42,368 bases of DNA, from positions 1-42,368 of IMG/VR virus record IMGVR_UViG_2737471817_000007, one strand, 5' to 3'. Under the pieces are notes generated by a model that was given only the letters and a program-made list of their open reading frames with translations, made no database searches and was not told the origin of the DNA. Both the position numbers and the translations under genes were made by a program. Shown here piece after piece: positions 2,788 through 41,000 of this stretch. Each line of letters starts with the position of its first letter. Position 1 is the first letter of the stretch. The DNA comes from a virus. Taxonomy: Duplodnaviria > Heunggongvirae > Uroviricota > Caudoviricetes.

Positions 2788-3147
2788 CTACTGCTGTTTT
2801 CGATTCAAAATCTGTCGTAAATTACGGAAGTCTTCTTCATTTAACTCATCAAAACTACGAGCGAACGCAATTGCGACTTCACGAGCGTGGCCATTCTTAC
2901 CTGACAAGCTGATCTCTACTGACTGCTGAGAGTCACGAGCTGCACTGATAAGCTTTTCTTTTTGTTTTTCATCCGCATTAAAATAGCTAATGATGCTATC
3001 AAGCACGGGCTTAGTGACCGCCCTTTTACCAGTTTCGATCGCTGAAAGATAAGACGAGGTCATACCCATAGCCTCAGCCATGCTTTTAAGCGTAAGCCCC
3101 AAGTCTATGCGCATTTTTCTTACTGTCTTACCAAACGGCGTTAACAT
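2788..3147 (-). CDS. XRE-family helix-turn-helix transcriptional regulator
   Basis: 119 aa; LTLKSMAEAMGMTSSYLSAIETGKR is a typical XRE HTH. Confidence 0.7.
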   Translation of the reverse strand: MLTPFGKTVRKMRIDLGLTLKSMAEAMGMTSSYLSAIETGKRAVTKPVLDSIISYFNADEKQKEKLISAARDSQQSVEISLSGKNGHAREVAIAFARSFDELNEEDFRNLRQILNRKQQ

Positions 3148-34955: not shown

Positions 34956-35630
34956 ATGAAAACAATCCATGACATCCGGCGGTCTAACGCCAGAAAACTG
35001 AGAGATGGTGTTGGCGGGAATTCTTCCTTTGCCACTATGATTGATCGCGAGCCAACCCAGACCAGCAGGTTTATGGGAGATGGTGCTACTAAAAATATCG
35101 GTGACAGCATGGCACGACACATCGAAAAATGTTTCGACCTGCCTGTTGGATGGCTCGATCAAGAACACCAGACAACGAACATCACAAAAAAACCTGATGT
35201 TTCAATCACTAATAAACAAATCACATTAGTCCCTGTCATATCATGGGTACAGGCCGGAGCATGGAAAGAAGTTGGATATTCTGAGGTTGATTTGAGCACA
35301 GCAGAAACGTATCCCTGCCCTGTACCCTGTGGGGAAATGACTTATATCTTGCGGGTGATAGGTGATTCAATGATTGATGAGTACCGCCCGGGAGACATGA
35401 TTTTTGTCGATCCTGAAGTACCAGCCTGCCACGGTGACGACGTTATTGCATTGATGCACGATACAGGTGAAACCACCTTCAAAAGGTTGATAGAAGATGG
35501 GACACAGCGTTATCTCAAAGCGTTAAACCCAAACTGGCCTGAGCCTTACATTAAGATCAACGGTAATTGCTCTATAATTGGAACTGTGATTTTCTCAGGA
35601 AAACCAAGAAGATACAAAATCAAAGCCTAA
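34956..35630 (+). CDS. cI: CI-type prophage repressor (HTH + S24 LexA-like peptidase domain)
   Basis: 224 aa; C-terminal GDSM ... FKRL Ser/Lys dyad region typical of S24 autoproteolytic repressors. Confidence 0.75.
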   Translation: MKTIHDIRRSNARKLRDGVGGNSSFATMIDREPTQTSRFMGDGATKNIGDSMARHIEKCFDLPVGWLDQEHQTTNITKKPDVSITNKQITLVPVISWVQAGAWKEVGYSEVDLSTAETYPCPVPCGEMTYILRVIGDSMIDEYRPGDMIFVDPEVPACHGDDVIALMHDTGETTFKRLIEDGTQRYLKALNPNWPEPYIKINGNCSIIGTVIFSGKPRRYKIKA

Positions 35631-35642
35631 TCAATGTTTATG

Positions 35643-35665
35643 AACCTGCTTCGGCAGGTTTTTTT
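35643..35665 (+). terminator. Intrinsic terminator after the repressor gene
   Basis: cctgc-ttcg-gcagg stem plus T7. Confidence 0.6.
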
Positions 35666-35669
35666 ATAC

Positions 35670-35706
35670 TTGACAATGTACCCATGAGATACATAATGTA
35701 CCCAAG
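35670..35706 (+). promoter_or_regulatory. PL-like early-left promoter with overlapping TGTACCC operator repeats
   Basis: TTGACA, 16-17 bp spacer, cATAATg; tgtaccca repeated across the spacer and downstream. Confidence 0.5.
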
Positions 35707-35786
35707 AGAAACAACGAACAGGCAGGACGCCCACGAAGTAGCCGCCTGGGGCATATAAAGTCTAGGGTGATTCGTTAGCAACAAAA

Positions 35787-35819
35787 AAGCGCCCTACAGG
35801 ACGCTTAGCTCTTTAACAA
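35787..35819 (+). promoter_or_regulatory. Hairpin plus rrn-type boxA (GCTCTTTAACAA): candidate antitermination (nut-like) site
   Basis: 35808-35819 is identical to the ribosomal-operon boxA core; preceded by a short stem-loop as in rrn leaders. Confidence 0.45.
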
Positions 35820-35864
35820 TCTGGTCCCCATCAACAAGTAACTGATAACTTGAGGAGGTGTGAA

Positions 35865-36071
35865 ATGCACAAAACAGAACCCACAATCGTCGCGCCCGGA
35901 TACACAAATGAGGAAATTTACGAGTGGATGGCAAAGAAGCTGGCAGCTATAAACCAGCTTCGTGAAGTGCTGTCTTATCGACAGGAAACAATAGACTCCT
36001 TAAAAAAACTGGATCAGGAAATCACGGTTTTATCACAGGATGTTACTTTAGATATTGTGCAGACAAATTAG
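35865..36071 (+). CDS. Hypothetical first early-left protein (about 68 aa)
   Basis: GAGGAGG Shine-Dalgarno 5 nt before the ATG at 35865; the ORF track starts at 35850. Confidence 0.4.
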   Translation: MHKTEPTIVAPGYTNEEIYEWMAKKLAAINQLREVLSYRQETIDSLKKLDQEITVLSQDVTLDIVQTN

Positions 36072-36477
36072 GATCCCATTCATTTTCGTCAAAATCATCA
36101 AAGTGATGAATTTGTGATCTCCAGTCTCGATAATCTAAAAATTTCTGGGCGGTTACGCTTATTTTATCAAGTGTGAGTTCATCCTGAATTGAAAGAAGAA
36201 GTTCATCAAATTTCATCTCATTAATCTGTTTTGGCATCCAGTGATGCTTCATCAGAATAAGGTGAACCAGAGCCTTTTTCCCATTCAACTGATTATAGGG
36301 AGTGCCGAATTTCTTCCGGTGCTCATGTAAGACAAGGTCCAGAAGAGTAAGTAATGTTGCCCTTGATTCCACTTTGCTTATTTCGACTGATGACACTACC
36401 CCACTGATTTCAATGCCCCGATACTTTCCAACATTTTCACAGTGGGATTTGTACAGCGTGTAGATATTACCGGACAT
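36043..36477 (-). CDS. Low-GC moron protein of unknown function, antisense to the early-left operon
   Basis: 144 aa; AT-rich; own Shine-Dalgarno; direct repeats in its upstream region. Confidence 0.55.
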   Translation of the reverse strand: MSGNIYTLYKSHCENVGKYRGIEISGVVSSVEISKVESRATLLTLLDLVLHEHRKKFGTPYNQLNGKKALVHLILMKHHWMPKQINEMKFDELLLSIQDELTLDKISVTAQKFLDYRDWRSQIHHFDDFDENEWDPNLSAQYLK

Positions 36478-36619
36478 TTCTTTTCCTTTTGCGTTGTTGG
36501 GGATAACCAGATTAACCGAATCCTTGTTGTTGGGGAATAACCAGGTCCACCTCGCCTGATGTGGCTAAAAGCAGGCACATAACAGCTAAGTATTTTTAAC
36601 CAGAGAGAATCCTTAGCGT

Positions 36620-36930
36620 TGTGGTGAATGCGGCTCAGCGCACGCGGGTTAAGGTTGAGGCTGACAGTCGACCTTCTGTGGATACCCACCCGTCTGGTGT
36701 GCAACCTTCGCCAGGCACCGGGAGGCACCCGGCACCACAACTTTATGCTGTGTGTAGTCCTGGAGGTACCAGTTTGTACCCTTGCTTCCGGCTGGTACCG
36801 TCCTTTTTACAAAACAGAGAAGAGCATCACCGGACGACGGGCTCATAACCCAATCCATCCGGGCGGCTGCCACCGCAGGTGTTCTTCTCTGTTTTGTGGA
36901 GAAACTAATCGGCCTTGCAGGGTCGATATG
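36620..36930. other. GC-rich untranslated region with nested inverted repeats and operator-like TGTACC motifs
   Basis: IR acaaaacagagaagag (36809-36824) / ttcttctctgttttgt (36883-36898); ggtaccag ... ctggtacc (36765-36799); ctggaggtacc resembles operator O1. Confidence 0.45.
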
Positions 36931-36945
36931 ATGAGGAGCAGCAAA

Positions 36946-37308
36946 ATGGCTAGCGAACGCAGTACTGATGTGCAGGCATTTATCGGGGAGCTGGACGGCG
37001 GCGTATTTGAAACCAAAATCGGCGCAGTTCTCAGTGAAGTCGCTTCCGGTGTGATGAACACGAAAACCAAAGGTAAGGTCTCACTCAACCTGGAAATCGA
37101 ACCATTTGATGAGAACCGTGTGAAAATCAAACACAAACTCTCATATGTTCGCCCGACTAACCGCGGGAAAATTTCCGAAGAAGACACCACCGAAACGCCG
37201 ATGTATGTCAATCGCGGTGGTCGCCTGACTATTCTGCAGGAAGACCAGGGACAGTTACTGACTCTTGCCGGTGAACCTGACGGAAAACTCCGCGCAGCAG
37301 GTCGTTAA
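36946..37308 (+). CDS. Hypothetical early protein, same length as CPS-53 YfdP (120 aa)
   Basis: AGGAG Shine-Dalgarno before the ATG at 36946; the upstream part of track ORF 36628-37308 is Arg/Cys-rich read-through of the GC-rich region. Confidence 0.5.
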   Translation: MASERSTDVQAFIGELDGGVFETKIGAVLSEVASGVMNTKTKGKVSLNLEIEPFDENRVKIKHKLSYVRPTNRGKISEEDTTETPMYVNRGGRLTILQEDQGQLLTLAGEPDGKLRAAGR

Positions 37309-39520: not shown

Positions 39521-39870
39521 TGGAGCCATACAGCCTCACACTCGATGAGGCCTGTCATTTTCTCAAGATATCCAGACCGACTGCCATTAACTGGATACGC
39601 ACAGGGCGTCTTCAGGCAACACGCAAAGATCCCACTAAGAATAAATCTCCTTACCTCACAACACGACAAGCCTGCATTGCGGCTCTTCAGTCTCCGCTGC
39701 ATACTGTCCAGGTGAGCGCGGGTGATGGCATAACAGAGGAAAGAAAATGTCACTCTTCCGCAGAGGTGAAATATGGTACGCCAGTTTCACATTGCCGAAC
39801 GGTAAAAGATTTAAACAGTCTCTTGGAACAAAGGACAAAAGGCAGGCGACAGAACTCCATGACAAGCTAA
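39520..39870 (+). CDS. xis: Excisionase (AlpA/MerR-like HTH)
   Basis: [34 protein letters not shown] immediately upstream of and overlapping int. Confidence 0.55.
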
Positions 39871-40910
39871 AGGCTGAAGCATGGCGGGTCAGCAAACTTG
39901 GTGAAATACCTGATATAACGTTCGAGGAAGCGTGTGTCAGGTGGCTTGAAGAGAAAGCACATAAAAAATCACTGGACGATGACAAAAGCCGGATCGGATT
40001 CTGGCTTCAACATTTCGCAGGAATGCAACTAAGAGACATTACTGAATCAAAAATTTATTCAGCAATGCAGAAAATGACGAACCGGCGTCATGAGGAAAAC
40101 TGGAAACTCAGGGCAGAAGCATGCAGAAAAAAAGGGAAACCTGTTCCAGAATACACGCCAAAACCAGCGTCCGTTGCAACGAAGGCTACGCATCTTTCAT
40201 TTATAAAGGCCCTACTAAGAGCCGCAGAGCGTGAATGGAAAATGCTGGATAAGGCACCAATTATTAAAGTGCCTCAACCAAAGAATAAACGGATCCGCTG
40301 GCTGGAGCCCCATGAAGCACAAAGGCTGATTGATGAATGTCCGGAGCCATTAAAGTCTGTTGTTGAATTTGCACTGGCAACAGGCTTAAGACGCTCGAAC
40401 ATCATCAACCTTGAATGGCAACAAATAGATATGCAGCGCCGGGTGGCATGGATAAACCCGGAAGAGAGTAAATCAAACCGCGCAATTGGCGTTGCGCTGA
40501 ATGATACTGCATGTCGCGTTTTGAAAAAACAAATCGGGAATCATCACCGTTGGGTATTTGTGTACAAGGAAAGCTGTACCAAACCAGACGGAACGAAAGC
40601 GCCAACAGTAAGGAAGATGCGGTATGACGCAAACACAGCCTGGAAAGCGGCGCTGAGACGGGCTGGTATTGATGATTTCAGATTTCACGACTTGAGACAC
40701 ACCTGGGCAAGTTGGCTGGTTCAAGCCGGAGTCCCGTTGTCAGTGTTACAGGAAATGGGAGGCTGGGAGTCTATCGAAATGGTTCGTCGATATGCTCACC
40801 TTGCACCTAATCACCTTACCGAACACGCACGGCAAATAGACTCGATCCTGAACCCATCGGTCCCAAATTCGTCCCAGTCAAAAAATAAGGAAGGTACTAA
40901 TGATGTGTAA
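39747..40910 (+). CDS. int: Tyrosine integrase
   Basis: 387 aa; C-terminal HDLRHT ... VRRYAHL catalytic region; ends 14 bp from the tRNA. Confidence 0.85.
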
Positions 40911-40969
40911 CTTATTGATTTAAATGGTGCCGATAATAGGAGTCGAACCTACGACCTTCGCATTACGAA
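40903..40969. repeat. attR: phage/tRNA junction copy of the attachment repeat
   Basis: Matches 104-170; lies inside the tRNA 3' half. Confidence 0.75.
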
Positions 40970-41000
40970 TGCGCTGCTCTACCAACTGAGCTATATCGGC
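40925..41000 (-). tRNA. thrW: tRNA-Thr (anticodon CGU)
   Basis: Reverse complement reads GCCGATATAGCTCAGTTGGTAGAGCAGCGCATTCGTAATGCGAAGGTCGTAGGTTCGACTCCTATTATCGGCACCA: cloverleaf with CGT anticodon and CCA end. Confidence 0.85.

Follow-up and report, generated by a model that had tools for sequence, protein, structure and literature searches.

An antisense ECs1072-family gene in the early-left region of Shigella phage SfIV and the repeats of its leader

Shigella phage SfIV carries, antisense to its early-left (PL) operon, a gene for a protein of 144 amino acids (aa), SfIVp36, and this locus raises the question of what such a gene is and what the direct repeats in its upstream region stand for. 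The window analyzed here, i.e., the whole stretch of 42,368 nucleotides (nt), is phage SfIV, to which the region in question is 99.8% identical. SfIVp36 proves to be a true accessory (moron) gene, exchanged horizontally, that belongs to the ECs1072 family and is situated antisense in the PL operon at a hotspot of gene replacement. For the locus as a whole, we give an even chance to the account that an antisense moron cassette with a duplicated promoter/leader is expressed in the lysogen and that the cassette and the PL operon are under reciprocal antisense control.

An accessory gene at an exchange hotspot

The reality of the minus-strand gene, its antisense orientation, and its low guanine-plus-cytosine (GC) content, all claimed in a preliminary description made from the sequence alone, were borne out. 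The coding sequence (CDS) begins with ATG, 8 nt downstream of a Shine-Dalgarno (SD) sequence (Table 1), whereas cI, PL, yfdP, yfdQ, yfdR, xis, and int are all on the plus strand. The GC content is 38.6% in the CDS and 40.3% in the cassette, compared with 50.6% in the window and 54.3% in the adjacent block. The proposal that the gene is a moron rather than part of the core also agrees with a survey of 5,426 complete Escherichia coli genomes, in which only 407 of the 2,894 genomes matching any part of positions 35640 to 36960 carry at least 80% of this region; the cassette is thus present in approximately 7.5% of the complete genomes.

The flanks are common to relatives, up to approximately position 35857 on one side and from position 36547 on the other, and the middle differs. 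Comparison with related prophages, which the preliminary description had suggested as a check, reveals unrelated genes at the same spot in close relatives: ymfJ (sense) and ymfI (antisense) in e14, orf33 and an unannotated 81-aa antisense open reading frame (ORF) in SfV, the 63-aa antisense gene SfII_36 in SfII, an antisense gene for a coiled-coil/Zn-ribbon protein in PhiR29_1, and a sense gene for a helix-turn-helix protein in mEp460; 2H10 likewise differs at the hotspot. The cassettes of SfV, e14, SfII, and mEp460 all join the backbone at the conserved block that lies upstream of the SfIV gene. The locus of e14, whose YmfK is the same protein as the SfIV cI repressor, shares with that of SfIV the backbone position, cI, PL, the arrangement of a sense and an antisense gene that converge, and homology of the upstream leader, whereas the encoded proteins are unrelated and the leader is of the single-copy type. 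YmfI and the product of the SfV antisense ORF were considered as distant members of the ECs1072 family and were ruled out (hhalign probability below 1%).

The SfIV cassette is compact and consists of the conserved upstream block, a candidate promoter/leader, the CDS, a convergent YdfC-like ORF, and a predicted minus-strand terminator. Its moron character is supported by presence/absence and replacement among collinear relatives and by a base composition unlike that of the flanks; as signals of its own, the cassette has the predicted terminator (35806-35787) and only a weak sigma70-like site, TTCCCC-17-TAATCT.

Two of the alternative cargos call for a remark on their annotation. The unannotated SfV ORF (U82619; L003 ~2880-3122, minus strand) matches phrog_3311 (1.2e-55) and is preceded by the conserved leader with TGGTATCCT. 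The annotated 242-aa ORF of PhiR29_1 (L100 506-1234) begins inside the small RNA (sRNA) region described below and runs across the repeat leader. Translation of the real gene is probably initiated at a GTG or ATG approximately 75 to 80 codons downstream, and the product would then be a protein of some 165 aa with a coiled coil and a Zn ribbon, which Klebsiella phages Kp4882-1 to Kp4887-1 also encode.

The preliminary description recognized no motif in the 144-aa protein, a statement that has to be revised. With 157.8 bits, the protein fits NCBIfam NF033230 ("ECs1072 family phage-associated protein"; ~142 aa; curated cutoff, 70 bits) over profile positions 2 to 142 of 142, and it matches phrog_5286 across protein positions 1 to 144 (1.5e-90). 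SfIVp36 belongs to these families, which are catalogued without an assigned function. Searching 1.8 billion representative proteins with a profile gave 76 clusters (50% identity) of the family, nearly all of them single-domain proteins of 143 to 157 aa, in which L50, R54, L64, G66, A69, H72, and W134 are near-invariant. The AlphaFold (AF2) model obtained from the family alignment is all-helical, with a predicted local distance difference test (pLDDT) score of 94.2 and a predicted template modeling (pTM) score of 0.88. The maximum 19-aa hydropathy is 0.84, and there is no transmembrane segment; the protein is therefore soluble, unlike SieB or RexB.

Pfam gave no match for the protein (E ≤ 1) or for 46 family members, a sequence-profile search of the PDB with the family gave none, and a Foldseek search of the model against the BFVD viral models returned nothing with an E value below 0.9. 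An HEPN or HD-like enzyme was considered on account of the conserved His and Arg residues and weak HD matches, and it was rejected on the basis of the corresponding motifs (Rx4-6H; H..HD..D). Identity with SieB was dismissed because PF14163 is unmatched and a membrane segment is lacking, and a Rex-like identity because neither homology nor a membrane segment was found. A literature search with ECs1072, WP_000016389, NF033230, and the phrog families retrieved no functional study. The family is already catalogued but uncharacterized; it is a good experimental target and is not surprising in kind.

The family gene is antisense to a phage operon in every locus looked at. It occupies the early-left position next to cI in lambdoid prophages of Yersinia, Pectobacterium, and Proteus, lies within the early operon in P2-like prophages of Pantoea, and is located in the late operon, upstream of the holin gene, in a Serratia prophage (L009) and in ST64B; Klebsiella prophages are also among the hosts of family members. 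The preliminary description had likened the position of the SfIV gene to that of sieB-type exclusion genes, and one Yersinia prophage agrees with this, as a SieB-domain gene (PF14163) is the immediate same-strand neighbor of its family member.

The ST64B homolog is the family member for which expression data bear on SfIVp36. It is a 144-aa ORF between sb50 and the holin gene sb51 (AY055382 ~36435-36869, complement; L105 2345-2779), unannotated in GenBank, with 32% identity to SfIVp36 over 92 aa; members of its cluster are named ECs1072 family, and this version is found on at least 1,000 Salmonella contigs. We equate the ORF with STMMW_20121 of strain D23580 (2090066-2090500) because the length of 435 bp, the 162 nt to the holin gene, and the 71-nt overlap with sb50 agree. 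Owen et al. (2020) reported that STMMW_20121 is antisense to lytic genes, has its own promoter, is highly expressed in lysogens, and is expressed in almost all conditions (PMC7067206). Its level is approximately 60 to 270 transcripts per million (TPM) in 16 of 17 conditions, whereas the holin gene reaches 0.3 to 35 TPM and the upstream gene sb49 reaches 2 to 7 TPM; its partner sb50 (STMMW_20131) is found at 23 to 258 TPM (PMC7067206 Table S5). Like SfIVp36, STMMW_20121 is opposed in orientation to lytic genes of its phage and overlaps a small partner on which it converges; unlike SfIVp36, it is in the late operon rather than beside cI and has a single-copy leader with TGATATTGT. By analogy with this homolog, the SfIV gene would be expressed from the prophage via its own promoter. 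ECs1072 itself is named in a growth-transition expression list obtained by microarray in O157 Sakai (PMC2241611).

Direct repeats and the candidate promoter/leader

The two direct repeats were located as the preliminary description had stated, i.e., GTTGTTGGGGATAACC at 36493-36508 and GTTGTTGGGGAATAACC at 36526-36542. They extend to 18 to 20 nt, GTTGTTGGGGA(A)TAACCAG(G), at 36493-36510 (R2, near the gene) and 36526-36545 (R1), are one indel apart, and have a spacing of 33 to 34 nt. Direct-repeat alignment within the 123 nt upstream gave a top score of 17, compared with 7.2 ± 1.3 (maximum 14) in 300 dinucleotide shuffles, none of which reached 17.

On the other hand, the repeats, which the preliminary description took as candidate binding sites for a regulator, are not an operator pair specific to the gene, as the same two-repeat leader precedes unrelated cargo and other leaders are single copy. 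The upstream region is homologous across the family and in front of the unrelated antisense genes ymfI, SfII_36, and the SfV antisense ORF, and it is better conserved than the gene: the nucleotide identities of the upstream 70 nt and the CDS are 97 versus 80% in family locus L004, 81 versus 65% in L006, and 71 versus 67% in L005. Most leaders, including those of other family members and of ymfI, contain a single copy of the unit, and the SfIV-type leader contains the unit of approximately 34 nt twice. Such two-repeat (type-B) leaders precede ECs1072-family cargo in SfIV, L004, L005, and L006, Zn-ribbon cargo in PhiR29/PhiR49 and five Klebsiella phages (including Kp4882-1), and a gene for an 83-aa protein in Salmonella phage F1055; R2 is kept in those with unrelated cargo.

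In eight single-copy leaders, the sequence TG.TAT..T, which matches an extended -10 element, is invariant. It is the best sigma70-like site within 130 nt upstream in nine of nine single-copy leaders and its end is 27 to 36 nt away from the start codon, except in the P2-like leader, where the distance is 60 nt; transcription starts would be expected 6 to 8 nt past TGATATTGT in the ST64B leader and past TGGTATGCT in the ymfI leader. A sigma-factor SELEX peak in the vicinity of ymfI was of too low a precision to be of use. The best promoter-like site of the two-repeat leaders is TTCCCC-17-TAATCT, which ends 30 to 32 nt from the ATG, a distance shared with the single-copy leaders. Both hexamers are conserved in the two-repeat leaders (L005 has TTCCTC and TACTCT), and TA.TCT is invariant in six of them. 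The repeats are best read as a tandem duplication (~34 nt) of a promoter/leader unit, with TTCCCC-N17-TAATCT as the candidate promoter. R1 would supply the -35-like TTCCCC and the spacer between the repeats the -10-like TAATCT, and transcription would start inside R2, giving a CA-rich 5' untranslated region (UTR) of approximately 25 to 30 nt.

Several observations weigh against this reading. The type-B promoter is weak (4.9 bits), lacks the TG, and has a poor -35 element. An SD-like AAGGA in the promoter spacer is invariant, although a promoter needs no conservation there. The single-copy leaders have a stem right after "TAT", which is formed by five different sequences (CUUGG/CCAAG, GCUGG/CCAGC, CCUUUUA/UAAAAGG, UGUUG/CAACG, and CCUC/GAGG); should the mRNA contain this stem, transcription must begin upstream of the proposed -10 element. 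The leader folds are, moreover, no more stable than those of shuffles.

The invariance of the AAGGA calls for some explanation, and one candidate is a DNA-binding regulator, either the CII-like protein or a cassette protein, that binds the repeats and an inverted third copy (C3; see below) and switches the antisense gene on or off. The two copies have the same orientation, are 33 to 34 bp apart (approximately three helical turns), and overlap the predicted -35 element and position +1; the core TyCCCCAAC is kept in both copies whatever the cargo, and C3 is located upstream of the partner ORF. We nevertheless consider such a regulator unlikely, since the motif is confined to this locus within the 42-kb window, other family members are served by single-copy leaders, and neither cassette protein has a recognizable DNA-binding domain. 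Autoregulation by the cargo protein in particular is improbable because the cargo changes while the repeats stay.

A further copy of the core of the repeats, degenerate in sequence (CCACAACGCTAAGGATTC; cf. CCCCAACAACAAGGATTC), is found at 36607-36629 on the minus strand, approximately 90 nt upstream of R1 and inside the sRNA region, which suggests repeated duplication in this stretch.

Table 1. Positions of the antisense gene, its leader, and other features in the window
Feature	Position	Strand	Remark
SfIVp36, 144-aa CDS, ECs1072-family phage-associated protein	36043..36477	-	
SD sequence AAGGA of the 144-aa gene	36484..36488	-	read from sequence
Repeat R2, AATCTGGTTATCCCCAACAAC	36493..36513	-	predicted start of 5' UTR; predicted transcription start site inside
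-10-like hexamer TAATCT	36509..36514	-	between repeats; top sigma70 position weight matrix site in 130 nt upstream; predicted
Repeat R1, CCTGGTTATTCCCCAACAAC	36526..36545	-	holds -35-like TTCCCC (36532-36537), 17 nt from TAATCT
Conserved upstream block, GTGCCTG..CCAC-N10-GTGG	36547..36578	-	variable cassette/backbone junction; common to all leaders
68-aa acidic ORF, phrog_1744	35865..36071	+	related to ydfC-annotated ORFs; converges on 144-aa gene
Inverted third repeat copy C3, AATCTGGTCCCCATCAACAAG	35818..35838	+	far end of cassette; mirrors repeats
Predicted intrinsic terminator of minus-strand transcript	35787..35806	-	kept in L004, L006, PhiR29_1, Kp4882-1
STnc100/PasD-like prophage sRNA	36588..36810	+	Rfam RF02076 full-model match, 38.4 bits, E 1.9e-6; outside cassette
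cI repressor gene	34956-35630	+	followed by its terminator
PL-type promoter, TTGACA-16-CATAAT	35670-35697 (element 35670..35713)	+	flanked by two 19-nt operator-like repeats
CII-like phage protein	34070-34633		
tRNA-Thr (anticodon CGT)	40925-41000	-	directly beyond integrase gene (39747-40910)

The convergent partner and the inverted third copy

The convergent partner ORF, the inverted third repeat copy, and the adjacent sRNA were not mentioned in the preliminary description. The 68-aa partner ORF overlaps the 144-aa gene by 29 nt, and a convergent overlapping small ORF is present at 11 of 12 distinct family loci, including those in P2-like and late-operon contexts, with overlaps of 29 to 227 nt and a common N-terminal motif, EP-x-I-x-x-PG-x-x-x-EE(I/L)-x-x-W. 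Since the predicted terminator of the gene lies beyond the start of the partner, the mRNA of the gene would be antisense to the entire 68-aa ORF, i.e., its long 3' UTR would cover the ORF. Conversely, sense transcription from the predicted PL promoter would cross the cassette and, when PL fires, would pass through the 68-aa ORF and run antisense over the 144-aa gene. Taken together, these two arrangements suggest reciprocal, excludon-style control. The K-12 pairs ymfI-ymfJ and sieB-ydaF are convergent excludons according to RNA-seq (PMC12288877), and ymfJ is induced late in the SOS response.

The pairing is not without exceptions, and these count against our account of the locus. L005 is a family locus that has no partner ORF, and ydfC-annotated relatives of the partner occur in 19 phage records that lack the family gene; in phage Evi, the one such record checked, the ydfC-like ORF is not paired in this way. 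The association between gene and partner is one-way. Furthermore, both members of the ST64B pair are expressed in lysogens; production of the partner only upon induction is therefore not general.

The same arrangement could mean that the transcript is the main product, so that a constitutive minus-strand RNA silences leaky PL transcription of the small ORF and of early genes downstream, stabilizes lysogeny, and leaves a secondary part to the cargo proteins, or that the pair is a toxin-antitoxin-like addiction module. The shared leader with interchangeable cargo, a 3' UTR that spans the whole partner ORF including its ribosome-binding site, the analogous K-12 pairs termed excludons, and the coexpression of the ST64B genes in lysogens are all in line with one or the other. 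We regard either reading as quite improbable. Conservation is strong in the protein family, which has a single domain, invariant residues, and a confidently modeled fold, and the family is kept in late operons and P2-like phages, where silencing of PL is irrelevant. With regard to addiction, the convergent layout is unlike the usual type II toxin-antitoxin operon, and no toxin-like fold was found; a type II module, which would call for a co-directional two-gene operon with a DNA-binding antitoxin and a recognizable toxin fold, was rejected.

The initiation regions of the 68-aa ORF (35844-35867) and of yfdP (36925-36948) are 71% alike over 24 nt (GATA..TGAGGAG....AAATG), which may be due to chance or to a shared ribosome-binding context.

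C3 lies at the far end of the cassette. Its similarity score to the repeats is reached by 2 of 500 shuffles, and its complementarity to the leader copies extends over 20 nt at 75% and over 14 nt at 93%. It is also found in L004, L005, PhiR29_1, and Kp4882-1, where each C3 resembles the R2 of its own locus (19 of 21 positions in PhiR29_1), whereas the similarity is not significant in the six other loci tested, namely the two-repeat locus L006 and five single-copy loci. C3 is therefore not common to the whole family but reaches significance in SfIV-type loci alone. Long-range RNA pairing, use as recombination handles, or a shared protein site may underlie C3.

As RNA, R2 or R1 could pair with its complement in C3, approximately 650 nt away, and serve as a target of RNase III or as a stabilizer; pairing would join the 5' and 3' ends of the minus-strand mRNA and, in the PL transcript, would create a long-range stem that loops out the cassette. 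A variant of this idea is that the ACAAGGAU core and the SD sequence form a pair of CsrA-type GGA sites; we take ACAAGGAU to match the core of the CsrA consensus from systematic evolution of ligands by exponential enrichment (SELEX). Both the minimum free energy (MFE) and the centroid folds of either transcript pair C3 with R2, the complementarity of C3 exceeds that of most shuffles, and C3 follows its own R2 in PhiR29_1, L005, and Kp4882-1. A role as RNA is rather unlikely all the same: C3 is without significance in L006 and the five single-copy loci, the whole-transcript fold z-scores are only approximately -1, and in L005 a terminator hairpin precedes C3, so that the mRNA may exclude it. 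Recombination would, in addition, yield the similarity of C3 and R2 equally well.

R2 and C3 might be terminal inverted repeats at recombination junctions, i.e., scars or handles of a homologous or site-specific route of cargo exchange and not regulators. The same frame (leader repeats, C3 with GTTAAAGAGC, and the terminator) surrounds different cargo in SfIV, PhiR29_1, and Kp4882-1 and occurs in lambdoid and Rac-like contexts; an AAC trinucleotide at both ends in PhiR29_1 is a weak point in the same direction. We hold this to be very unlikely. No recombinase is associated with the frame, all four of the near-full-length E. coli matches listed are collinear, with no inverted copy seen and no systematic check made, and single-copy leaders have no significant C3. 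The conservation of TTCC.C and TA.TCT at a fixed spacing also fits function better than scars, and the duplicated promoter/leader remains our preferred reading of the repeats.

Possible function and neighboring features

The position of the gene, the SieB neighbor in one Yersinia prophage, and the precedent of bstA led us to the tentative proposal, which we rate as less likely than not, that phage exclusion or abortive infection is brought about in the lysogen with the soluble helical protein as effector and that the small acidic partner modulates or neutralizes it. The exclusion gene sieB of P22 and Rac (P22 esc/sas) is lysogen-expressed and, like the SfIV gene, antisense in the PL operon, with an antisense-RNA interplay with early transcription, and K-12 sieB forms a convergent pair with the small sense ORF ydaF. 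SieB is, however, a membrane protein without sequence or Pfam similarity to the 144-aa protein. BstA of prophage BTP1 is encoded by an accessory gene beside the repressor gene, is highly expressed in lysogeny, and was first flagged by the same transcriptomic approach as the ST64B homolog. It was later shown to be an abortive-infection defense with self-immunity, whereas defense is a guess for the ECs1072 family; moreover, BstA has no homology to SfIVp36, is larger, and is encoded co-oriented downstream of cI. Lambda rexAB also provides an exclusion function in the immunity region and is expressed in lysogens, but it is cotranscribed with cI rather than antisense to PL, it has no homology to the SfIV gene, and RexB is a membrane protein.

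A defense role is weakened by the lack of a PADLOC match, of a fold relative, and of a known defense gene among the hotspot cargos. Searched against PADLOC-DB 2.0.0 (2023 library), neither the SfIV pair nor the ST64B pair matched a defense model, and the same is true of the alternative cargos, among which there is no known defense protein. We put forward as a doubtful extension that the gene and its YdfC-like partner form a hitherto unrecognized two-gene antiphage module whose all-helical fold is new and which travels on a portable promoter/leader frame. Such a frame would let temperate phages of Enterobacterales plug interchangeable antisense cargo into early or late operons, and convergent transcription would give self-immunity during the lytic growth of the phage itself. 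The cassette may instead serve to stabilize lysogeny by antisense RNA, act as an addiction module, or affect host physiology.

Expression in lysogens at repressor-like levels where measured and a confident, unmatched fold make this common family an open target that suits screens for defense or lysogenic conversion. Because the conserved leader frame precedes unrelated antisense cargo, the leader could also be used to harvest further lysogen-expressed accessory genes.

Outside the cassette, the GC-rich block at 36547-36940 was at first a candidate for an RNA of the retron or put type, but an Rfam search in E-value mode identified it as STnc100-like. STnc100/PasD are known prophage sRNAs. The match falls just under the RF02076 gathering score of 47, the block is conserved with a fold z-score of -5.3, and a strong intrinsic terminator (36768-36812) marks the end of the match; the same STnc100-like element is present in SfV and ST64B. 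The ORFs annotated over the sRNA are probably spurious, i.e., the 5' part of SfIVp34, SfIVp35, ymfH of K-12, and a "frameshifted" RefSeq pseudogene. The long PhiR29_1 ORF, which also runs through the sRNA gene and the repeat leader, is probably no gene as annotated, and ST64B and SfV each hold an unannotated antisense gene. An inverted repeat with 25-nt arms (84% complementary; 39-nt loop) is found at 36809-36897, right after the sRNA terminator and just before yfdP; together with that terminator, it implies that PL transcripts need read-through to reach yfdP and int.

Past PL, the gene order on the plus strand is yfdP, yfdQ, and yfdR, followed by xis and int. In SfV, the C4 antisense RNA (82 bits) and isrK (64 bits) have Rfam matches in or near the orf37/orf38 "immunity region" (L003 386-574, minus strand); neither is present in the SfIV window at the Rfam gathering threshold. 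The location of the tRNA-Thr(CGT) gene fits the thrW attachment site, which we take to be the one used by the Shigella serotype-converting phages.

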